Source: Actinomycetota bacterium
Lineage (GTDB): Bacteria > Actinomycetota > CADDZG01 > JAHWKV01
Length of the DNA stretch: 64,000 bases
Assembly: GCA_040905365.1 (NCBI GenBank)
Contig: JBBDRQ010000034.1
Span: 69,151 to 133,150, forward strand
Direction: 5' to 3'
This document shows positions 6,186-54,061 of this stretch, one piece after another. The position numbers were made by a program, and so were the translations under genes. The notes under the pieces are model-generated. The model did not search any database and had not been told where the DNA came from. It was given only the letters and a program-made list of their open reading frames with translations. Within the stretch, counting starts at the first letter, position 1. Each line of letters opens with the position of its first letter.

Positions 6186-7937
6186 ATGCCTATAAGCGGC
6201 CAGAGCTTCGCATCGATCGGTGTTCAAACCGCCGAGGTCGAGTTCGCACCTTTGCTGGTCGGGTTCCTAGGCGGGCTGGCCCTCCTGCTGTTCGGCCTGG
6301 GTCACCTCACCTCGGCGCTAAAGGGGGTGGCCGGCGACAGTCTGAGGGCCCTTCTGGCCCGCCTGACCGGCAACCGCTTCAAAGCGGTTTCCACCGGGCT
6401 GGTTACCACCGCCGTCCTTCAATCCTCCACGGTGACCACCGTTCTCGTGGTCGGATTCGTCGACGCCGGTCTGCTCAACCTAACCTCCGCACTCGGGGTC
6501 ATCCTGGGCTCCAACGTGGGCACCACCGTTACCGCCCAGGTCGTAGCCATCGACGTGGCCGATTGGGCTTTGGCGCTGGTAGCGGTGGGCTTTGCCGCCG
6601 CGCGGTACGCCAAGAGCGAGCGCTTCACCGGCTGGGGCAACGCGGTGCTGGGGCTAGGCTTGGTATTCGTGGGCATACAGGCTATGGGCAGCGCCACGTC
6701 TCCGCTGAGCGGCCACCCTCCCTTCCTGGAAGTCCTGGCCGGGCTGCGCAATCCTGTAATTGGAGCTGCGGCGGGCGCGGTCCTGGCCGCCCTGCTTCAC
6801 TCCTCATCGGCCACCACCGTGCTGGCTATCGTCTTTGCTTCCGAGGGCCTGCTGCCACTGGAGGCCGGCTTGGCCGTGGTCATTGGGGCCAACGTCGGCA
6901 CCTGCGTCACTGCGGGGTTGGTGGCCGTCGGCAAGTCCAGGGACGCCCAGCGGGCCGCAGCCGGACACATTGCGTTCAACCTTGCCGGCGCCGTTCTGTG
7001 GTTGTCCTTGATCTCTCCGTTGGCGACGATAGCCGCCGCAGCATCGCCGCAACACCCGGAGCTGGAGGGCACGGCCCGCCTGTCCGCCGAAGTCCCCCGG
7101 CAGCTGGCCAACGCGCACTTCGTCTTCAACGTCTCCAACGTAGTGCTCCTCATCGGGCTGCTCCGTCCAGCCTCCACCCTATTGCGGCGGATCCTGCCCG
7201 ACCGCACCGATGTCCCTCCACCCGTCTCCACTCCCCGCTACCTAAACTTCGACCTGCTTGCCACGCCCTCACTGGCCTTGGTTGCGGTTCAGCACGAAAT
7301 GAGACGGCTGGGCGAGCTCGTAATCGACATGCTGGAAAAGGCTCCCCACGCAGTTCTTTCCGGGAACCGATCGAGCTTGGAGGAGCTTGAAAAGGACGAC
7401 GAAAACGTCGACGCCCTGTATTCGAGCATGGTCGCCTACCTGGCCCGGCTGACCGAGACTTCCCTCTCCGGGTCCGACGGGCAGCGCCTGCTCACTCTGC
7501 TGGAGGCAACCAACGCCCTTGAGAGCATCGCCGACCTGGTCGAGACGAACCTGGTGGCGCAGGGCAGGCGGCGCCTGGACTCGGGCGGCCAGGTCAGCGA
7601 AGTGACTAGGGGCCTGCTCACAGACCTGTTCGCCTCGGTCAACTCCACGGTCGCCGACGCCCTCAAAGCAGCAGTGGACGACGACGCCGGAGCCAGGGCT
7701 CGAGTCCAGGCCGCCAAGGGCGACATCAACCGCAGGCTCGACGCCGCCCGGGGCCATCAGGTACGCCGGCTGATCGAGCAGCATGGGAATCGCCGCCTGC
7801 TCTACGCGATCGAGACCGATGTCATAGATGTCATAAAACGGATCGAGTACCTCGCCCGCCACGTGGTAAGGCCCCGGCCGGCCACCGGCGTACGCATAGG
7901 CCAGGACCGGTTCGGCGCCGTCGAGGAAGAGCCTTAG
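6186..7937 (+). CDS. Na+/phosphate symporter (NptA family) with C-terminal PhoU-like domain
   Basis: Tandem NptA-type membrane repeats (QSSTVTTVLVVGF... / HSSSATTVLAIVFAS...) followed by a PhoU-like helical domain. The tool ORF starts at 6081 but the first in-frame ATG with an adjacent GAGGAG is at 6186. The true start may be a downstream TTG. Confidence 0.75.
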   Translation: MPISGQSFASIGVQTAEVEFAPLLVGFLGGLALLLFGLGHLTSALKGVAGDSLRALLARLTGNRFKAVSTGLVTTAVLQSSTVTTVLVVGFVDAGLLNLTSALGVILGSNVGTTVTAQVVAIDVADWALALVAVGFAAARYAKSERFTGWGNAVLGLGLVFVGIQAMGSATSPLSGHPPFLEVLAGLRNPVIGAAAGAVLAALLHSSSATTVLAIVFASEGLLPLEAGLAVVIGANVGTCVTAGLVAVGKSRDAQRAAAGHIAFNLAGAVLWLSLISPLATIAAAASPQHPELEGTARLSAEVPRQLANAHFVFNVSNVVLLIGLLRPASTLLRRILPDRTDVPPPVSTPRYLNFDLLATPSLALVAVQHEMRRLGELVIDMLEKAPHAVLSGNRSSLEELEKDDENVDALYSSMVAYLARLTETSLSGSDGQRLLTLLEATNALESIADLVETNLVAQGRRRLDSGGQVSEVTRGLLTDLFASVNSTVADALKAAVDDDAGARARVQAAKGDINRRLDAARGHQVRRLIEQHGNRRLLYAIETDVIDVIKRIEYLARHVVRPRPATGVRIGQDRFGAVEEEP

Positions 7938-8842
7938 AATCCCCTGGCCAGCGACTCGACGTGCGAGTCCACCCGGCACAGGCCGACGGTTCCGTTGATG
8001 GCGGTGGAGTCTTTGATCTCCAGGTGGTTCTCGGGCGAGTACCAGGCCACCCGGTTGATCGTCACGTCCAGGGATCCCTGCGACGAGGCGCCCGTGACCT
8101 TGCTCACGGTTCGAAGACGGTGGGCGGGAAGAACCGCCCCCCCGGCCAGCGTTACCGACTCGGAAAGAGCTTCCACCGTCACCGTCGTGTCCATCCGCAC
8201 CCGGCCGTCCGGCGACGTCAGATCGAACTGCAGCGTCTGACCTGGCTGCGGATAAGCAGGGATCAGCCGGACCGGCGGGTCGGCCCTGAACTCGAACTCC
8301 AGTGTCTGCAGCGCCACGGTCTGGGACTGCCGAAGCGACACCAGGTACGCTCCGTCGTCCCGATACTCAAGAGTCAGGTCCAGCACCGACTCCACCGAGG
8401 AAGCGTTCAGGTTGTCCCTCAAGATTCGCTGCCGGCGGCCCTCGGGTCCGTAGACCGACAGCCGCACCGTATCGGGCACCTCCTGCGCGCTGGTTAGACA
8501 TCCGCGGGTCGATACGTTGCCGTTTTGGTCAAAAGTGTAGGTGCCCTTGGGCGCCACTCCTGTGGACGGCGGCCCCTGCTCCCCTACCGGCTCGGGGACC
8601 GGCGGCGGCAAAGCCGGCGGCTCCGGCGGGGCGGGCGGCGGTGCGGGCGGCGGTGCGGGGCTCGGTGCCGGCGGGGTCGAGCTCGCCGCGGGCGAAGGCG
8701 TCGGCGAGGGTGCGGGCGTGAGACTGGGTGAAGGCGTCGGCGTCGGAGAGCTCCGCAGTTCGGTTTCGGTGTTAGATCCACATGCGCCCAGCAACATGGC
8801 CGCGCTGAGCAGTACCGCCGCCAAACGGTTCTCACTACTCAT
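7934..8842 (-). CDS. Secreted lipoprotein with Pro/Ala/Ser-rich linker, last gene of ABC exporter operon
   Basis: Signal peptide with lipobox (LLGAC), a long low-complexity PTPTPSPS...PAPPPAPPPAPPEPP linker, then a globular C-terminal domain. Start overlaps the upstream permease stop. Confidence 0.7.
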   Translation of the reverse strand: MSSENRLAAVLLSAAMLLGACGSNTETELRSSPTPTPSPSLTPAPSPTPSPAASSTPPAPSPAPPPAPPPAPPEPPALPPPVPEPVGEQGPPSTGVAPKGTYTFDQNGNVSTRGCLTSAQEVPDTVRLSVYGPEGRRQRILRDNLNASSVESVLDLTLEYRDDGAYLVSLRQSQTVALQTLEFEFRADPPVRLIPAYPQPGQTLQFDLTSPDGRVRMDTTVTVEALSESVTLAGGAVLPAHRLRTVSKVTGASSQGSLDVTINRVAWYSPENHLEIKDSTAINGTVGLCRVDSHVESLARGF

Positions 8843-42565: not shown

Positions 42566-42892
42566 TCAAAAGAAGCCGAGAGCCGACCGCGCAAGCTCAC
42601 TCATCTTGTCCGGACCCCACGCGGGCTGCATCGTCATCTCCGAGGTTACGCTGGAGATGCCCTCGACACTCGCAGCAGCCTCCCGGATCTCGTTTTCGAT
42701 CTGAGCTCCCGCCGGACAACCGGCCGAGGTCAGCGTAAAGGTGATCTGGGCCTCGCCGTCGTCGGTTACAACCACGTCGTAAATCAGGCCGAGATCAACA
42801 ATGTTGATCCCGATCTCCGGGTCATCGACGACCTTAAGCGCCTCGAAGACTTCCTCAGGTGTGGGCATAGGTCCATTGTAGTCCACTACCAC
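42566..42892 (-). CDS. DUF59/SufT-like Fe-S cluster assembly protein
   Basis: About 100-aa protein with the MIP18/DUF59 pattern (VVDDPEIGINIVDLGLIYDV...TLTSAGCP). The true start may be the internal ATG (MPTPEEVF...). Confidence 0.75.
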   Translation of the reverse strand: MVVDYNGPMPTPEEVFEALKVVDDPEIGINIVDLGLIYDVVVTDDGEAQITFTLTSAGCPAGAQIENEIREAAASVEGISSVTSEMTMQPAWGPDKMSELARSALGFF

Positions 42893-42898
42893 CGCGTT

Positions 42899-43603
42899 TC
42901 AGTCAAGCTGGCCCAACGCGGCGGTCAACTTCCGCGCCTCTCCCGCCGGGTCGTCGCTCTGGGTCAGGGCCCGCACCACCGACACCCGCCCGGCGCCTGC
43001 ATCCAGCACCGAGCGTACGTTCGAGGCATTGATACCTCCGATGGCAAAGACCGGCTTGGTGGCCCGCTTAGCAGCAGCCCGAACCAGGTCCAGGCCCACG
43101 GCCGGCCGCCCGGGTTTGGTGGGCGTGGCAAACACCGGACCAATCGCGCAGTAGTCGGCCGTTGAGGCGGTCGCCGACTCCAACTGATCGACCGAGTGGG
43201 TCGATACCCCGACAATCAGCTCGGGCCCCACCTGACGGCGGGCCTCGTCGAGGGGCAGGTCTTGTTGCCCCAGATGTACGCCGTCGGCTCCTGCCGCGAT
43301 CGCTACATCTACTCGGTCGTTCACAATGAACAGGGCCCCGGCGGCGGCCGTACGCCTCCTCACCACCTCGGCGTACCTCAACAAAGGCCCTGCCTCCATC
43401 TGCTTCTCCCTCAGCTGCACCATCCCGACCCCTGCGTCCAAAACCTCTGCCAGAAAGCGGTCCAAGTCACCCGCCGCAGACCGCGCGTCGGTGACCAGGT
43501 AGAGGCGGCACTCTCCCAATTGCGCATTCGGCGGATCAGCGCGCGCTGCGTTGCGAATCCCGTCCTCCTCCTCTTTGTCCTTTTTCTCCTTGGGTCGGGG
43601 CAC
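42899..43603 (-). CDS. thiE: Thiamine-phosphate synthase
   Basis: TMP-TENI fold motifs (LYLVTD, VQLREK, VNDRVDVA, GADGVHLGQQD, GVSTHS, DYCAIGPVFATPTKPG, AIGGI). The N-terminal 25 codons are K/E-rich low complexity and may not be translated; an internal TTG is possible. Confidence 0.85.
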   Translation of the reverse strand: MPRPKEKKDKEEEDGIRNAARADPPNAQLGECRLYLVTDARSAAGDLDRFLAEVLDAGVGMVQLREKQMEAGPLLRYAEVVRRRTAAAGALFIVNDRVDVAIAAGADGVHLGQQDLPLDEARRQVGPELIVGVSTHSVDQLESATASTADYCAIGPVFATPTKPGRPAVGLDLVRAAAKRATKPVFAIGGINASNVRSVLDAGAGRVSVVRALTQSDDPAGEARKLTAALGQLD

Positions 43604-43747
43604 AAACCTCTTAAGCGACGTGACAAGTTTGTCACGGCACAGTAATTTTCTCGTATCGACTCTCGATCGCGACGAAGGCCCAGCCGGACCAGGATCAATC
43701 CGGCGCGCGAGCCGAGGGCTTAATCACCGACTCGAGGGGGTGAATAA

Positions 43748-44221
43748 TTGTTCGAAGACCGACAAGTGGTAGTACTCGGCGAACGCGACGGCGTCTCCGG
43801 GGGTGCCATATCGGCCTGCGTGGAGGCCATCGGCGGGTCCCACATCGCTTTCGCCGCCACGGAATGCTTTGTCTGAACGGCCTCAGGAGCCATGGATCTG
43901 CAACACCAGGAGGTAATCCTGGCGCTCTCCAATGAACACGGCCCGGAGAAGCTGCTCATCATCTTGGGTTCGCCCGACGCTGAGAGTGCGCAAGTCTCCG
44001 CCGAAACCGTAGTTCTGGGAGATCCGACTTACGCAGGTGCTTTGGCCGAGGTCCAGTTGGGCCTCGACGTTTACCACATACTAGAAGATGAGATTCGCAG
44101 CCTAGTCCCCGAGGACGTCTTCGAGGAGCAGGTGGGGCTCATGGCCGACGTGCTCGATACCGACGACATCACCGCCACCCTGCGCGACATAAGGTCGCAA
44201 TCGCCGGCACCGGAGTGTTAG
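43748..44221 (+). CDS. grdA: Glycine/sarcosine/betaine reductase complex selenoprotein A homolog with in-frame UGA selenocysteine codon at 43874..43876
   Basis: TTG start at 43748 preceded by GAGGGGGUGA (43733-43742) and by an in-frame TAA at 43745. The translation reads through TGA as Sec: (M)FEDRQVVVLGERDGVSGGAISACVEAIGGSHIAFAATECFV-U-TASGAMDLQHQEVILALSNEHGPEKLLIILGSPDAESAQVSAETVVLGDPTYAGALAEVQLGLDVYHILEDEIRSLVPEDVFEEQVGLMADVLDTDD... This matches the GrdA pattern VIIIGDRDGIPGPAIAEC...STECFVUTAAGAMDLENQ...VVLLGAAEAESAGLAAETVT.GDPTFAGPLAGVQLGL along the whole 157 codons (from memory of the family, not a database hit). The ORF track shows only 43892..44221. Confidence 0.8.
43886..43929 (+). 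ncRNA. Candidate bacterial SECIS hairpin within grdA, 10 nt downstream of the UGA
   Basis: GGAG (43886-89) pairs with CUCC (43926-29), enclosing an upper stem CCAGGA (43906-11) / UCCUGG (43917-22) with apical loop GGUAA (contains G and U). The geometry is comparable to SelB-binding SECIS elements. Structure inferred by eye only. Confidence 0.4.
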
Positions 44222-44587
44222 TACTAGGCACATCGGGCCGCAACCCGGGTCCGTTGTGCGCCACCCTCGGATGAGGGACAACTTCTACGCGCCCGTTCCC
44301 GCGGGTACCTCTCCCGCGGGTACCTCGACATTCTGCAACATTCGACACATGCCACAAGCACAAAACGTCAATTGCTACTTGACATAGCACCACTTTTCGT
44401 GAATGATTTGCACACTCAGTAGCCGGAACCTTTTTTAACAGGAGATCCAACAGCAAGCTGTCCGGGCCCGTAGAATTAGCCCAATTTAATAAGCAGAGCT
44501 TTGTTGCGTTACTCACTGGATTAGTCGGTAGTAATTCAATAGCATGAGCCACGCATTTGTCATGCGCCGAAAGAGGGCTTTTAACGC

Positions 44588-44617
44588 TTAGATACTTAGA
44601 TAGATTTAGATAGATAC
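44588..44617 (+). promoter_or_regulatory. Three TTAGATA direct repeats (8/10-nt phasing) in the AT-rich leader of the sortase-substrate gene
   Basis: cTTAGATAcTTAGATAgatTTAGATAgatacag at 44588-44617. A strong AGAGGAG Shine-Dalgarno (44631-37) follows, 9 nt before ATG 44647. A TTGACA hexamer at 44377-82 with AATGAT 17 nt downstream is a possible sigma70-type promoter. The surrounding 44330-44640 is markedly AT-richer than the window average. Confidence 0.45.
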
Positions 44618-44646
44618 AGACGCACAAAAAAGAGGAGTAAATCTCA

Positions 44647-46434
44647 ATGTCGGGCACACAAAGGAAGAAAAAGGGGGTTACCAGGGTAACTGCGCTGCTC
44701 GCGCTGGTTGCCATGGGCCTAGCCCTCGCTCCCCAGGCAGCGCTGGGTCAAGTATCCTTCAGCGATGCAGATTTTTCCGGTTACGCGACCGGTACCTACC
44801 TTCACGCCGACGCACTGACGCTAGGCTCATCCCCCACCGTCAAGGCCGACCTCGGCTGGTCCGGCGCGTCCGTCGCTTCCAAAGGGCTCGATACCGCGGT
44901 GAGCGATGAGCTCGGCCGGGTCGTCCAACCTTCCGTACCCGGCAAGAACAGCTACGGCGCAGGGTTTGGTCTGGACGTCAGTCTGCTCGGCAGCGACATC
45001 CTCCAGCAGCAGGCCGCAGCTGCAGCCGCCCCTCCCTCCACGGAGTTGATCAAGAAGACCCTGGTAGGACCCATTGATGTACCCGGCGTGCTCTCGGCAG
45101 GCGTTGTAGAAGGCAGGGCTCAGGCAACCTACGACCCGAACAACTGCATCCTCGGTAAGGACCTCAGCTACGGCCAGGGCAACGTGGCCGACGCCTCGCT
45201 TCTGACCGGCGACGTGCTCGGTGGCGTCGGAGACACTCTTTCCGCTCTGTTGGGCACCGACCCGAGCAGCCAGGACCCCGGAGCAGTCCGCTCCTCCTCG
45301 CGCACCCGGTTGGTTCCTCAGACCGATGAGGGTGGCAACATTGTCGGCCCGAACTTGGGTCTTCTGAGCGAAACCCGTCAGACGCTTGCTCCAGTCGTTC
45401 TGTTCCAGGGCGTGCCCGGGGCAGAGCTCACCATTGAGCTGCTGGGTGAATGGGTTATCCAGGCGGTTGCCACCGGTATTCCGGGACAGTCGTACGTCAG
45501 CTACCAGCCGGGCACCGCCAACGGCGAAACACCGGTGCTCAAGGTAACCAACACGCTTCCGCTTCCGGACGCCGGTTCCGAGTTGGTAGAGGGCCTCACG
45601 GTCACGCTCGACCAGCTACTGGGCATCGTTCCGCTCGACGACCTGCTCCAGGGCGACCTGCTGGGCCTCGGCCTGGTGGAGTTGGTGCTCGACCCCGACC
45701 CCACCGTGACGGAGTCCGCCGACGGCACTCACGCCAAGGGCGTAGTTGATGTCGTGCGGGTCCGCTTGCTCCCCGAGGGCGAGGGACTGCTGGGCGACCT
45801 GCTGGGCACCACGCTGGGCGGCCTTGAGCTTGCCGACGTGCGTGTCGGACACATGGAAGTCGAGTCCAGGGTCCCGGTCGGCGGCATCACCTGCGCAGGT
45901 GCGGACGTCAAGAAGGCCGCCAACCCGGAGATCGTCAATGCGGGACAGAGCTTCGTCTACTCCATCAACACGACGAACCCGTTCGACTGCGAACTGACCA
46001 GCAACTCTCTGGTCGACACCATGACCGTGCCCGACAACATCGGGTTCACGATCGGCAGCCAGGATCCGCCGGCCAGTTCCACGACGGCCAACTCGGTTAC
46101 CTATAACGACATAGGGCCTATAGCGCCCAAGGAGTCGAAGTCCGTCTCCTTCCAAGTCGCCGTAGCCGATAACGCCGCTAACGGGAACTTTGTGAACCGG
46201 GCCGAGGTGGTGTCCAACTGTGCCTTGGAGACGGCGCAGGGAGGCACGGCCAACGTCCAGCTCACGGCGTTCGACGAAATCGACAAACCGCGGGTGCAGG
46301 CGCAGGAAGCGCCACCGTTGCCAAAGACGGGCGGAACCACCGCCTTCTGGGCAACCATGGCGGTGATCCTCGGGGGCATATCCGTGGCCTCGGCGTTCGG
46401 CTACCGCAAGCTGGGGGGCATCTCCCAGAGGTAA
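44647..46434 (+). CDS. Sortase-anchored surface protein (signal peptide, DUF11-like repeat domain, LPKTG sorting signal)
   Basis: N-terminal signal peptide (KKKGVTRVTALLALVAMGLALAPQAALGQ). The C-terminus has LPKTGG followed by a hydrophobic stretch and RK tail (cell-wall sorting signal). The 'conserved repeat' style domain begins near NAGQSFVYSINTTNP. Confidence 0.85.
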   Translation: MSGTQRKKKGVTRVTALLALVAMGLALAPQAALGQVSFSDADFSGYATGTYLHADALTLGSSPTVKADLGWSGASVASKGLDTAVSDELGRVVQPSVPGKNSYGAGFGLDVSLLGSDILQQQAAAAAAPPSTELIKKTLVGPIDVPGVLSAGVVEGRAQATYDPNNCILGKDLSYGQGNVADASLLTGDVLGGVGDTLSALLGTDPSSQDPGAVRSSSRTRLVPQTDEGGNIVGPNLGLLSETRQTLAPVVLFQGVPGAELTIELLGEWVIQAVATGIPGQSYVSYQPGTANGETPVLKVTNTLPLPDAGSELVEGLTVTLDQLLGIVPLDDLLQGDLLGLGLVELVLDPDPTVTESADGTHAKGVVDVVRVRLLPEGEGLLGDLLGTTLGGLELADVRVGHMEVESRVPVGGITCAGADVKKAANPEIVNAGQSFVYSINTTNPFDCELTSNSLVDTMTVPDNIGFTIGSQDPPASSTTANSVTYNDIGPIAPKESKSVSFQVAVADNAANGNFVNRAEVVSNCALETAQGGTANVQLTAFDEIDKPRVQAQEAPPLPKTGGTTAFWATMAVILGGISVASAFGYRKLGGISQR

Positions 46435-46450
46435 CGGTTAACGACAAAAA

Positions 46451-46480
46451 GGGGGCTCGGCTCTTGCGGGAGCCGAGCCC
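46451..46480 (+). terminator. Stable hairpin downstream of the surface-protein gene
   Basis: GGGGCUCGGCUC - uugcgg - GAGCCGAGCCC, an 11-bp perfect stem preceded by an A-run. No U-tract, which is common for high-GC terminators. Confidence 0.5.
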
Positions 46481-46594
46481 TTCGTACCTCAGCAGCCTCG
46501 AGGAGGGCTCGCCGTGGTTAAAGAGCCACCGTTAGAGACGAGTCTTAAATATGATGGTTGGAATCGGCCGGGGGGCTAATCCAGGAGTAAAGAC

Positions 46595-47221
46595 GTGGAG
46601 CTAAGTCAGCAGGGACGGCGCAAATTGGCGGTCGTTTTAGCCGGTATGGCCGCGATCACGGCGCTGGGATCCGCGGGTTTTTTCATGTACCCCCTGTACA
46701 CCGACTGGCAGGCTAACCGGACCCAAAGCCAGTTGCGGGATCAGTTCCAGACGGCCAGCCTGAAGGCGGACTACGCGGCCGGCGAGGTGCAAGACGCCTC
46801 CCCCCTCACGCGCATCATCATCCCGGCGATGGGCACGGACACGATCGTGGTGGAGGGCACCTCCTCCAAAGCGCTCAACACCGGCGCCGGCCACTACCCG
46901 AACACGCCCCTGCCCGGAGAGCCTGGTAACGTGGCGATTGCCGGGCACCGCACCACCTACGGCAAGCCGTTCTCTAACTTGGAGGTGCTGAAACCGGGAG
47001 ACAAGATCACGCTGATCACGCCTTTTGCCGAGCACACCTATGAAGTTGTAGACCCTTTCGACGGCCACGCCAATCCATGGGTAACTTCCGCCAGCGACTG
47101 GTCGGCCATCAACCCGACGCCCGAAGCGACGTTGACGCTGACCACATGCCACCCTAAAGGGTCCGACCGGCAACGCCTGATTGCCCGCGCCGTCCTGCTT
47201 GAGTCCAAGGACATCGCATGA
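46595..47221 (+). CDS. Class E sortase
   Basis: GTG start with AGGAG Shine-Dalgarno, N-terminal TM, catalytic His (AGHRTTYG), TLTTCHP cysteine motif and conserved Arg, typical of actinobacterial class E sortases. Confidence 0.88.
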   Translation: MELSQQGRRKLAVVLAGMAAITALGSAGFFMYPLYTDWQANRTQSQLRDQFQTASLKADYAAGEVQDASPLTRIIIPAMGTDTIVVEGTSSKALNTGAGHYPNTPLPGEPGNVAIAGHRTTYGKPFSNLEVLKPGDKITLITPFAEHTYEVVDPFDGHANPWVTSASDWSAINPTPEATLTLTTCHPKGSDRQRLIARAVLLESKDIA

Positions 47222-51697: not shown

Positions 51698-51856
51698 CCC
51701 GACCTCCCCTAATAGATCCCTAATTAATCCGAATCCCCGTCCGTAGTTACTACGTTTACATCTCGTGATGATACATTGATAACTGACACGGTGCAAACAA
51801 TCGGCTGTCCTGGCCTTGAAATAGGTAGCCGGGAAAAACGGGGAGGTATTCTGGAC

Positions 51857-52600
51857 GCTATGCCGGGCAAGATGACTATCGACGAGCTGGCCCGCGAAGC
51901 GGGAACCACCACCCGAAACATTCGCGCGTATCAAACCAAAGGTGTGCTGGAACCTCCCGACATCGTCGGCCGAATCGGCTACTACAGTAAGGACCACCTG
52001 ACTCGTCTGAAGCTAATATCGCGCCTGCAGCAGCGCGGTTTTGGGCTGGCGGCGATCAGCGACCTGCTCGATGCTTGGGACTGCGGCTCCAGCTTGAGCG
52101 AGGTCCTCGGATTCCAAGAGGCCCTGCTGGCTCCCTGGAGCGACGAGTTGCCTGAAAAGGTCTCGCGCCAACAACTGGAGACCCTGTTCCCGGACATCGT
52201 GTCCGACCCCGGTCTCATCGACCGAGCCAAGAAGCTCGACTTGCTGGCCGAAGAGGGCGACGATTACCGGCTGCCCAGCCCACGACTGGCCAAGGTAGGG
52301 GCCAAGCTGGTGAGCATCGGAGTACCCCTGAGCGCAGTGCTGGCCCAGGCCGAGCTGATGAAAGACGACATCGACAACATGGCTATGCGCCTGGTCGCGA
52401 TGTTCTCCATCTACGTGTGGGAACCGTTCGTCTCCGGAGAGACCCCGGAGAGGTCCCTTACCGACGTCACCGAGATCCTTCAGGAGATGCGGCCGCTCGC
52501 GGCCGAGGCGGTCAGCGTGTTCCTCGCTCGAGCAATGCAGGCGGCAACCGAGGCGGCCGCGCTGGAGGACCTGAAACAGCAGCTCGAAGGGACCAGTTGA
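51857..52600 (+). CDS. MerR-family transcriptional regulator with extended C-terminal domain
   Basis: MerR HTH MTIDELAREAGTTTRNIRAYQTKGVLEPP near the N-terminus (start at internal ATG), plus a roughly 170-aa C-terminal domain of unknown function. Confidence 0.75.
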   Translation, partial: AMPGKMTIDELAREAGTTTRNIRAYQTKGVLEPPDIVGRIGYYSKDHLTRLKLISRLQQRGFGLAAISDLLDAWDCGSSLSEVLGFQEALLAPWSDELPEKVSRQQLETLFPDIVSDPGLIDRAKKLDLLAEEGDDYRLPSPRLAKVGAKLVSIGVPLSAVLAQAELMKDDIDNMAMRLVAMFSIYVWEPFVSGETPERSLTDVTEILQEMRPLAAEAVSVFLARAMQAATEAAALEDLKQQLEGTS

Positions 52601-54061
52601 TTGGCGGACCTACCGTCCGGTGCTCCGGTTCAGTATCACCAGCTGACCAAGCACTCCCCCGCGTCGGTCCGCGCTACCGCCCACCGGCTGGACTTCACCG
52701 ATCAGCCCCAGCCCTTCAAAATCTACCCGGATCTGGACCCGGTCCCGCTGCCCGACCCGGCAGCCGACACCAAGTACCCGGCTCCCGCGGCCGTCGCCGA
52801 GCAAATCAACGACGAACATCGCCGCTTCGACTCCGGCGAGTTGGCCCGGCTACTAACCCTGGGTGCCGGCATTCGCCGCGTTTTCAGCGGGCCCGGCAGC
52901 CGTCCCATCTACCTGCGCTCCTATGCCTGTGCAGGCGCCCTTTACCCGATAGAGGTCTATGTTTCCTGCGCGGACGTAAACGGGGTAGAGCCCGGTCTCT
53001 ACCACTACAGCCCGATCGAGGACGGCCTACGCCAACTCCGCCCCGGTGATCCACGGCCCTACCTGGTAAGGGCCTGTGGCGGGCGGCACTCGGTGGCCAC
53101 CGCGCCCGCATGCATCATCTTGTCGGGAATCGTGTGGCGCACCGCCTGGAAATACCGGGCCCGGGGCTATCGCCACCTGTGGTGGGACTCCGGCATGATC
53201 CTGGCCAACTTGCTGGCTCTCGGCGCCTCGGGCGGCCACCGCTGCGAGGTGGTAGCGGGCTTCGACGACGCCGAACTCAACCACTTGCTGGGTGTGGACG
53301 GAACCTCCGAGATGGCTCTGTGCTTGGCACCTATTGGTTACGATCCGAATGCCCCCGCCGGCGACGCCGCAACCGATCCACCCGCGGCAATCGACTACCC
53401 GAGCCTGCCCATGTCGCGCTTTCGCCGAGACTACGACGAAGTTCTCAGCGTCCACTCCGAGACCTCGCTGAGCGGCTCCCTACAGGTCCAGCTTTGGCAG
53501 CAAGACGCCTGGAGCAACCCCGTGCCGCCTTCGTCCGTGTGCCCGACCGGCGTAGAGAAGGTCATTCGGAGGCGAGGTTCCAAACGCATTTTCGACAAAG
53601 ACCGTTCACAGATGAGCCTGGAACACTTTCACGGCATCCTCGACCACGCCACCCACCACCTGGCTTGCGACTGGGGCGAGCAGCTCACCCAAATTGGCGC
53701 CGTCGTCCATTCCGTCCGGGGGGTGGATCCGGGCGTCTACGCCTACCTGGACGGCCTGGACCTGATCGAACGCGGCGAGATGAGGGGCAAGGGTAAGTTT
53801 TTGTGCCTGGATCAGGACCTGGGCGGCGACGGAGCCGGCACTCTGTTTTTGTTCACCGATTTCGACGATGCCGCGCGCAGCCTGGGCAAACGCAGCTATC
53901 GAGCTGCGCAGCTGAACGCAGGAGTTGTCGGAGGCAGGCTGTACCTGTGCGCCTACGCATGCCAAATGGGCGCCACCGGCCTAACCTTCTTCGACGACGA
54001 GGTGAGGCGCTTCTTCTCTACTACCGCCGAACCTATGCTGGTCGTCGCCATCGGCCGCTGA
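52601..54061 (+). CDS. SagB/ThcOx-type tandem nitroreductase-fold dehydrogenase
   Basis: TTG start immediately after the MerR stop. N-terminal Y-H-x-L-T-K-H-S signature characteristic of SagB-type dehydrogenase domains, and two nitroreductase-like halves with Gly-rich FMN-binding regions. Confidence 0.7.
   Translation: MADLPSGAPVQYHQLTKHSPASVRATAHRLDFTDQPQPFKIYPDLDPVPLPDPAADTKYPAPAAVAEQINDEHRRFDSGELARLLTLGAGIRRVFSGPGSRPIYLRSYACAGALYPIEVYVSCADVNGVEPGLYHYSPIEDGLRQLRPGDPRPYLVRACGGRHSVATAPACIILSGIVWRTAWKYRARGYRHLWWDSGMILANLLALGASGGHRCEVVAGFDDAELNHLLGVDGTSEMALCLAPIGYDPNAPAGDAATDPPAAIDYPSLPMSRFRRDYDEVLSVHSETSLSGSLQVQLWQQDAWSNPVPPSSVCPTGVEKVIRRRGSKRIFDKDRSQMSLEHFHGILDHATHHLACDWGEQLTQIGAVVHSVRGVDPGVYAYLDGLDLIERGEMRGKGKFLCLDQDLGGDGAGTLFLFTDFDDAARSLGKRSYRAAQLNAGVVGGRLYLCAYACQMGATGLTFFDDEVRRFFSTTAEPMLVVAIGR

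Follow-up and report, generated by a model that had tools for sequence, protein, structure and literature searches.

A Candidate Selenocysteine Insertion Element Downstream of the In-Frame UGA of a Solitary grdA Gene in a High-GC Actinobacterium

A stretch of 64,000 nucleotides from an Actinomycetota bacterium (assembly GCA_040905365.1, contig JBBDRQ010000034.1, positions 69,151 to 133,150; we refer to the whole stretch as the window and use its own coordinates throughout) contains, on the forward strand, a solitary copy of grdA (43748–44221), the gene for selenoprotein A of glycine/sarcosine/betaine reductase, with an in-frame UGA at 43874–43876. We propose that a hairpin at 43893–43931, above all its apical portion at 43906–43922, is probably the selenocysteine insertion sequence (SECIS) for this UGA in a functional gene of a high-GC soil actinobacterium. 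As judged from sequence comparisons, what supports the hairpin is its conservation in close relatives and not its folding energy. As a SECIS candidate it is probably ordinary and specific to its lineage, of a kind to be expected in such genes; more surprising is a distal hairpin, which we call H3, that lies 178 nucleotides (nt) 3' of the UGA.

The UGA of grdA Lies in a Reading Frame under Selection on Both Sides

Translation through the TGA gives 157 codons, including the one for selenocysteine (Sec, or U), and the TGA falls within the ECFV-U-T motif of GrdA, which holds the redox motif C-x-x-U (here CFVU). The 157-residue translation matches the Pfam family GRDA (PF04723) with E = 8e-56 over profile positions 1–147 of 147, a match that spans the UGA, and scores 191 bits against the NCBIfam equivalog NF040748, for which the cut-off is 130; it is by the motif and these two profiles that we assign the gene to GrdA. 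Its start codon is TTG, and 7 nt upstream is a Shine-Dalgarno-like sequence, GAGGGGG (43734–43740), which may function as such.

For comparison, we assembled grdA loci from 80 species-representative genomes (belonging to Solirubrobacterales, Pseudonocardiales, Acidimicrobiales, Dormibacteria, a Chloroflexota, and a Gemmatimonadales), and added 80 loci from metagenomes and nine that were retrieved by protein identity. All 80 genome loci have TGA at the codon in question, as do 169 of the 170 loci in total, the sole exception being a homolog with TGC (Cys). Among the nearer relatives, the ratio of nonsynonymous to synonymous substitution rates (dN/dS) was 0.02–0.19 at a dS of ~1, both for the 41 codons that precede the UGA and for the ~111 codons that follow it, a pattern indicating that purifying selection acts on the gene both before and after the UGA. 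Because dN/dS is low on both sides of the UGA, we conclude that grdA is read through and is not a pseudogene. An earlier reading, made from the letters of the window alone (hereafter the sequence-only reading), had held that a hairpin downstream of the UGA would make readthrough plausible; readthrough is borne out by the substitution pattern, and the hairpin is not needed for it. Gene callers report the locus as two open reading frames (ORFs) of 42 and 106 amino acids, which should be annotated as one selenoprotein gene; it follows that the organism almost certainly decodes UGA as selenocysteine. We infer that its genome contains selA, selB, selC, and selD.

The homolog with Cys in place of Sec (locus L164, 154–609, with TGC at 277–279; protein P0008) has the motif PECFV-C-TAAG. 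In this homolog the distal hairpin is retained, and a weakened version of the proximal hairpin found in the nearest Sec-containing relatives is also present. A 2006 survey listed GrdA as a protein without known Cys homologs (PMC1794560).

A Three-Tier Hairpin Downstream of the UGA

The proximal hairpin (43893–43931) consists of three tiers, in which UGGA (43893–43896) pairs with UCCA (43928–43931), GC (43900–43901) pairs with GC (43924–43925), and CCAGGA (43906–43911) pairs with UCCUGG (43917–43922). The last of these forms the apical stem-loop, CCAGGA-GGUAA-UCCUGG (43906–43922), whose loop occupies 43912–43916 and which is the region that SelB would be predicted to contact. The three-tier hairpin is both the minimum-free-energy (MFE) and the centroid structure. 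When individual structures were evaluated, the three-tier form had an energy of −13.4 kcal/mol, the two-tier form proposed in the sequence-only reading −11.7 kcal/mol, and the apical hairpin alone −9.8 kcal/mol; constrained to a single hairpin, the three-tier form had an energy of −14.0 kcal/mol. In contexts ranging from 67 nt to the whole gene, the pair probability was 0.82–1.0 for the apical hairpin. The lower tier UGGA/UCCA had a pair probability of 0.7–0.86.

The sequence-only reading had the candidate element begin at 43877, which is indeed the first base after the in-frame TGA, and its apical stem and GGUAA loop are exactly what the sequence contains and what folding returned as MFE and centroid. 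Its lower tier fared differently. There GGAG (43886–43889, correctly placed) was said to pair with CUCC at 43926–43929, but these four positions read UCUC, and the pairs would be G-C, G-U, A-C, and G-U. The intended partner lies one nucleotide farther on, at 43927–43930, and even with this correction the pairing has a probability of 0.03, a minor alternative that is in neither the MFE nor the centroid structure. We have therefore replaced GGAG/CUCC with the tiers UGGA/UCCA and GC/GC. Also downstream of the UGA is a weak hairpin, H0, GGCCU-CAG-GAGCC (43879–43891), which contains a C-A mismatch here and is partly present in the MFE structure of the window; it is better formed in relatives (GGCCUCGGGGGCC).

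The consensus for a bacterial SECIS (bSECIS), that is, the bSECISearch model of Zhang and Gladyshev as summarized in PMC13188914 (Figure 2A), specifies a loop of 3–9 nt, an upper stem of 4–16 base pairs (bp), a spacing of 16–37 nt, and an MFE of −7.5 kcal/mol or lower, and it asks for at least one G among the first two nucleotides of the loop, as a rule with G or U next (PMC13188914, Figure 2). As in the model, the proximal hairpin is a stem-loop that lies within coding sequence, 3' of the UGA, and it agrees with all four numerical constraints and with the loop rule, having a loop of 5 nt, a stem of 6 bp, the sequence GGU, a spacing of 35 nt (43877–43911), and an energy of −14.0 kcal/mol as a single hairpin.

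The mechanism that we envisage is copied from the paradigm of E. coli fdhF. The fdhF SECIS is ~40 nt long, begins its stem at the UGA, carries G-U on the 5' side of its apical loop, and requires a bulged U. The window hairpin resembles it in its overall length of ~40 nt and in the 5'-side G-U of its apical loop, and differs from it in that 16 nt separate the UGA from the base of the hairpin and in that no bulged U is evident. While the UGA occupies the A site, the ribosome would leave the mRNA uncovered from about +13, and the hairpin could stay folded. Its loop would expose G-G-U 35 nt after the UGA, and SelB carrying Sec-tRNA(Sec) could bind the loop and decode the UGA; a GrdA of all 157 residues, the C-x-x-U redox motif included, would then be made. 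It is by this analogy that we infer SelB binding and actual Sec insertion at the UGA.

Synonymous Sites in the Stem Are Conserved in the Window's Own Clade

The evidence that carries our proposal comes from the clade to which the window belongs, which is represented by 10 distinct sequences with 75–92% protein identity and a mutual dS of ~1, most of them solitary genes beside thiE. In these 10 sequences, 94% of the cells of the three-tier structure are paired. In the codons with paired synonymous positions, pairwise synonymous differences average 0.083, as compared with 0.41–0.58 for codons of matching amino acids in other parts of these genes in six of the seven amino-acid classes. Synonymous sites in the stem are ~five times less variable than matched codons, and in an amino-acid-matched resampling none of 20,000 draws reached the value observed for the stem. 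The near-frozen paired codons are Leu8 CTG, Gln11 CAG, Ile14 ATC, Leu15 CTG, Ala16 GCG, and Ser18 TCC. The loop codons vary, with differences of 0.53 for Glu12 (GAG/GAA) and 0.69 for Val13 (GTA/GTG/GTC), and the loop of the clade has the form RGUNA (GGUAA, GGUGA, AGUAA, or AGUCA).

The choice of codon follows the type of hairpin. Leu15 is CTG in eight of nine sequences of the window type (the background frequency of CTG is 33%). In sequences that form an alternative hairpin, GCC-A-GGAGG/CCUCC-GGC, Leu15 is CTC in nine of nine, and Arg16 is CGG, an uncommon codon that the stem of the alternative hairpin requires, in seven of seven. The pattern within the clade is, to judge from these comparisons, the signature of selection on an RNA stem.

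Observations That Weigh against the Assignment

Several lines of observation count against the view that the proximal hairpin is a SECIS, and the first concerns how common such hairpins are. Among the 1535 TGA triplets in the window, 57% pass the bSECIS constraints and 25% precede a hairpin of at least equal stability. As measured against dinucleotide shuffles, the folding energy had a z-score of −0.54 for 43874–43940 and of +1.15 for a 131-nt context (43850–43980). When the 29 codons after the UGA were replaced with synonymous codons drawn from the usage of the family, 46% of the recodings gave an equal or better model hairpin, and over 32 diverse orthologs the mean z relative to such recodings was ~0. 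The spacing of 35 nt is close to the upper limit of the bSECIS model, and it compares with 17 nt for the SECIS of grdB in relatives and 22 nt for that of grdA in a low-GC operon (L170; see below). In searches against Rfam, no SECIS was matched in the whole window at gathering thresholds, and no SECIS family was among the matches for 43700–44300 at E values up to 10. A model-conforming hairpin is thus close to the default in this GC-rich DNA (62% GC), where the model barely discriminates, and we rejected folding energy as evidence of significance. A bSECISearch-type scan, which the sequence-only reading had called for, does find every constraint satisfied, as it does for over half of the TGAs in the window; agreement with the model is a weak criterion in GC-rich genomes. 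Synonymous-site conservation at the level of a clade can supply the evidence that agreement with the model lacks in such genomes.

The conservation itself has its weak points. The sequences are few, and the structure used in the conservation test was picked after the sequences had been seen. The stem codon His10 has a synonymous difference of 0.36, as compared with 0.07 for other His codons; the change is between C and U, both of which pair with G. The covariation analysis suggested in the sequence-only reading yielded essentially nothing in the clade: no classical compensatory covariation supports the window-type hairpin in the 10 sequences (97 of 500 shuffles match the observed value), and the only change that affects both sides of a pair occurs in a sequence in which the rest of the stem is disrupted. 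Moreover, one member of the closest clade (L166) has a C-U mismatch, and another sequence (L083) is without the hairpin.

Nor is the hairpin a feature of the family at large. No model-satisfying hairpin was present in 118 of 151 distinct orthologous sequences, including genes of Solirubrobacteraceae that lie beside selABCD; the remaining orthologs have several architectures, with spacings of 24–37 nt. Because most of the 151 orthologs fail, a strict bSECIS scan is unusable as a criterion for the whole family. Of the two outcomes that the sequence-only reading had named as refuting, the first, a fold missing from the low-energy structures, is not what we see, the hairpin being the MFE structure; the second, no conserved hairpin at this position in orthologs, holds outside the closest clade, and so the refuting test goes half against the reading. 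A SECIS-type hairpin 3' of a genuine Sec codon is still the reading with the best support, which comes from the full-length GrdA frame, the retained UGA, the agreement with the model, and the conservation of the stem in the clade.

Finally, the surroundings of the gene offer no help. No tRNA gene, and hence no tRNA-Sec, is present in the 64-kb window, and tblastn with GrdB, GrdC, GrdE, Trx, SelA, SelB, and SelD of locus L173 as queries found none of these in the window. Thus grdB or grdE, grdC or grdD, and trxA or trxB do not accompany grdA within the 64 kb; the partners of grdA may lie elsewhere in the genome.

The Proximal Hairpin of grdA Differs among Lineages

A search for a single proximal helix common to the whole family led to none beyond stems of 3–4 bp that arise from invariant Asp-Leu and Gln-Glu codons. 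The short family-wide features are the stem CCUG/CAGG, formed by those codons, and a variable hairpin immediately after the UGA. The window has UCUG/CAGG (43897–43910), a hairpin of 4 bp, one of them a wobble pair, whose loop lacks G. The hairpin immediately after the UGA is H0, which in most relatives has the form GGCCU-CGG-GGGCC and in Pseudonocardiales the form GGCU-GCCGG-AGCC, starting 2 nt after the UGA (it spans +5 to +17 in L006). Its codons in the relatives are anomalous, with TCG at 64% (19% elsewhere) and GGG at 68% (21% elsewhere), and a pair table of 164 sequences showed a single replacement of C-G by U-A; the loop in relatives, CGGG, is akin to the CGGGU loop of the grdB SECIS. 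H0 is too near the UGA for a standard SECIS, and its spacing is like that of a putative read-through stimulator.

The SECIS of grdB is a useful positive control for a frozen SECIS. In high-GC relatives it is nearly invariant, reading GCGUUG-CGGGU-CAACGC, and 17 nt separate the UGA from its loop; it lies at approximately 7949–7965 in locus L003 (UGA at 7935–7937) and at the same place in ~95 other loci, and it fixes the rare codons CGT and TCA. It is recognizable even in the low-GC operon L170, as CGUUGC-GGU-GCAACG. The proximal hairpin of the window is like the grdB SECIS in being a coding hairpin right after a Sec UGA with a G-rich loop, which in grdB ends in GU, and members of this grdA family are found in the same genomes as the grdB SECIS. 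The two differ in that the grdB SECIS is nearly invariant from low-GC Clostridia to Actinomycetota and uses rare codons, whereas the grdA proximal hairpin is lineage specific and uses mostly common codons. Since the proximal hairpin differs by lineage while the grdB SECIS is nearly frozen in the same genomes, the grdA SECIS appears to turn over rapidly among lineages, the window version being one lineage-specific solution.

Comparison with a canonical grdA SECIS gave a mixed outcome. Locus L170 is a canonical low-GC operon, grdX–trxB–trxA–grdE–grdA–grdB–grdC–grdD, and its grdA shares with that of the window the codon position of the UGA and, at the base of the hairpin, an anchor on the 5' side in the invariant Met-Asp codons (window, UGGA; L170, UGGAUC). 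The architecture and the position of the loop are different: L170 forms a plain hairpin of 6 bp, UGGAUC-UGGA-GAUCCA, and 22 nt separate the UGA from its loop, whereas the window has a 39-nt three-tier hairpin with its apical loop 13 nt farther on, built on different codons (Gln-Glu-Val-Ile-Leu).

A Highly Conserved Distal Hairpin

The distal hairpin H3, GAGGUCC-AGUU-GGGCCUC (44048–44065, forward strand), coincides with codons +58 to +63 and amounts to 8 bp if C44047-G44066 is counted; it had not been part of the sequence-only reading. H3 is the longest family-wide helix and the most conserved RNA structure in grdA, being present in at least four high-GC phyla. Over 45 distinct sequences, 98.7% of its cells are paired, a value reached by one of 500 shuffles, and its pairs have P ≥ 0.99 in the whole-gene fold, with an invariant AGUU loop. 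The pair table of 164 sequences contains solely wobble-compatible or compensatory changes, all eight A-for-G replacements being matched by U. In these coding sequences, the ratio of observed to expected synonymous variation is 0.0 at three H3 codons; 163 of 163 sequences use the rare codon TTG, and CTG and GYG are avoided exactly at the positions where their use would disrupt pairing. Only the sense strand tolerates G-U pairs, from which we take H3 to be a sense-strand RNA structure, and a reading at the level of DNA, as an operator, was rejected on the same ground.

Immediately 5' of H3 is a stretch (44021–44047, forward strand) marked by fixed rare codons for Asp (GAT), Ala (GCA), and Leu (TTG). 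GCA is used in 157 of 164 sequences (96%, as compared with 9% elsewhere), GAT in 89% (12% elsewhere), and TTG in 59% (13% elsewhere). When compared with synonymous recodings, the region of H3 had the most negative mean z in the gene (−1.24), and the 45 nt before H3 (codons 44–61) had a mean z of +0.9 to +1.0, being less structured than the recodings, as if this stretch were kept single-stranded.

H3 is absent from the grdA genes of three low-GC loci (L177, L170, and L172), in which the peptide is VELGL or VALNL. A hairpin in a shifted register, AGUCC-AGUUG/A-GGACU, is present in mid- to low-GC genes from Peptoclostridium acidaminophilum (L174), Photobacterium (L175, two copies), and Enterococcus gilvus (L176), where it uses the same codons, +58 to +63, with the register off by one and the peptide Val-Gln-Leu-Gly-Leu. 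Helices that might join H3 to the UGA over a long range proved to be just 4–6 bp, rich in wobble pairs, and without covariation, as expected by chance, and hairpins with an AGUU loop were not enriched outside grdA in 1.7 Mb of flanking DNA.

H3 fits no described bacterial SECIS, being 178 nt from the UGA. Its N-G-U-N loop looks like a SelB-binding loop, if the model for such loops applies. We see a slender chance that H3 (GAGGYCC-AGUU-GGGYCUC) is an undescribed cis-element of selenoprotein A expression, be it a SelB-recruiting or Sec-decoding enhancer or a pause element of translation or transcription tuned to slow UGA decoding. Were this so, the proximal hairpin would make up no more than a part of the signal.

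A second hairpin with a C-AGUU-G loop, ACGAGC-AGUU-GCUCGU, was observed in some Solirubrobacterales ~70 nt after the grdA UGA (L011; L019, 10194–10209; also L089, L098, L106, and L154). It is built on CAG TTG (Gln-Leu).

Alternative Explanations

We considered three other accounts of the locus. In the main one, the hairpin could be a by-product of encoding His-Gln-Glu-Val-Ile-Leu-Ala in preferred, GC-rich codons, insertion being directed by H0, by UCUG/CAGG, or by way of a relaxed requirement of SelB. The codons of the stem are in fact mostly preferred ones (CAC, CAG, and ATC), the recodings and the near-zero mean z of the orthologs are what this account would lead one to expect, as is the lack of a single proximal hairpin in the family, and H0 has in its favor the codon anomalies, the C-G to U-A exchange, and the grdB-like loop that it displays in relatives. 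Furthermore, the grdA genes of P. acidaminophilum and Photobacterium also fail the strict bSECIS model in our scan, and so grdA genes may not need a model-conforming hairpin. On the other side, the drop in synonymous variation within the clade is seen at paired positions only, including Leu15 CTG, Ala16 GCG, and Ser18 TCC, and was not reproduced in any resampling. Moreover, H0 is degenerate in the window on account of its mismatch, and when UGA occupies the A site, the position of H0 is inside the ribosome; UCUG/CAGG, for its part, offers only four pairs and no G in its loop. On balance, we regard a by-product as unlikely, and we favor the hairpin as the SECIS.

Could H3 instead be the main Sec-decoding element, acting at a distance on its own or as an enhancer that recruits SelB, with the proximal hairpin secondary to it? 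Its conservation exceeds by far that of any other structure in the gene, its invariant loop contains G-U, as do the SelB-binding loops of the bSECIS model, its rare-codon signature is like that of the undoubted grdB SECIS, and most orthologs are without a convincing proximal SECIS. But the described bacterial SECIS elements are all immediately 3' of the UGA, at 16–37 nt; H3, rare codons included, persists in the Cys homolog, which is at most 72% identical to any Sec-containing form and differs synonymously at 31–52% of shared codons; three low-GC genes with Sec manage without H3, and grdB has no such distal hairpin; and no conserved long-range helix links H3 to the UGA. We consider this role for H3 quite improbable. 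It is harder still to credit that the UGA is a true stop and the locus a split or decaying remnant of grdA, in which case the hairpin would be irrelevant. Such a view could appeal to the want of grdB, grdC, grdE, trx, selA, selB, selD, and tRNA-Sec in the 64 kb and to the splitting of the locus by gene callers; it is opposed by the strong purifying selection on both parts at saturating dS, by the persistence of the solitary layout beside thiE in relatives, by the fact that in the clade the UGA has never been exchanged for a sense codon or another stop codon, and by the solitary extra copies of grdA in P. acidaminophilum.

Genomic Setting and Other Features of the Window

In the window, grdA stands alone. 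Upstream, on the other strand, are thiE and a gene for FeS assembly; downstream are genes for an LPKTG-bearing surface protein and a sortase, and moaA. (Neighboring genes were taken from tables of called genes; naive clustering of ORFs was swamped by wrong-frame ORFs in GC-rich DNA.) The same solitary layout beside thiE is found in at least six other contigs, with 75–88% protein identity, and the divergent arrangement of grdA and thiE is part of a conserved synteny (window, 42566–47221; L161, which is in assembly GCA_030447305.1, and L166–L169). In other relatives, genes of the Sec machinery (selB, selA, tRNA-Sec, and selD) adjoin the grd genes, which counts in favor of the SECIS assignment. 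Thus, in Solirubrobacteraceae (L173) grdA ends a cluster, grdE–grdB–grdC–trx–grdA, that adjoins selD, tRNA-Sec, selA, and selB. Because P. acidaminophilum, an organism with glycine reductase, has solitary extra copies of grdA, the solitary state is no evidence of decay. A limited literature search on glycine reductase in Thermoleophilia or Solirubrobacterales returned nothing relevant. The solitary grdA beside thiE and the distal hairpin are leads for learning how aerobic soil Actinomycetota express and use selenoprotein A.

No other convincing selenoprotein gene was found in the 64-kb window. One candidate was a TGA at 52598–52600 that lies in the same frame between two long ORFs (51776–52600 and 52601–54061), with high GC at third codon positions on both sides and a model-conforming hairpin. 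We rejected it, as synteny with L161 points to two separate genes, one MerR-like and the other for a nitroreductase.

Two further observations concern the DNA that follows grdA. In three close relatives, the gene directly after grdA encodes a GAF-ANTAR RNA-binding regulator (L167, 6462–7448; L168, 6881–7486; L169, 5514–6554) and is followed by CheB- and CheR-like genes, an arrangement not seen in the window. In the window, the spacer after grdA contains at 44297–44326 a 15-nt tandem duplication consisting of two copies of TCCCGCGGGTACCTC, each of which holds the palindrome CCCGCGGG.

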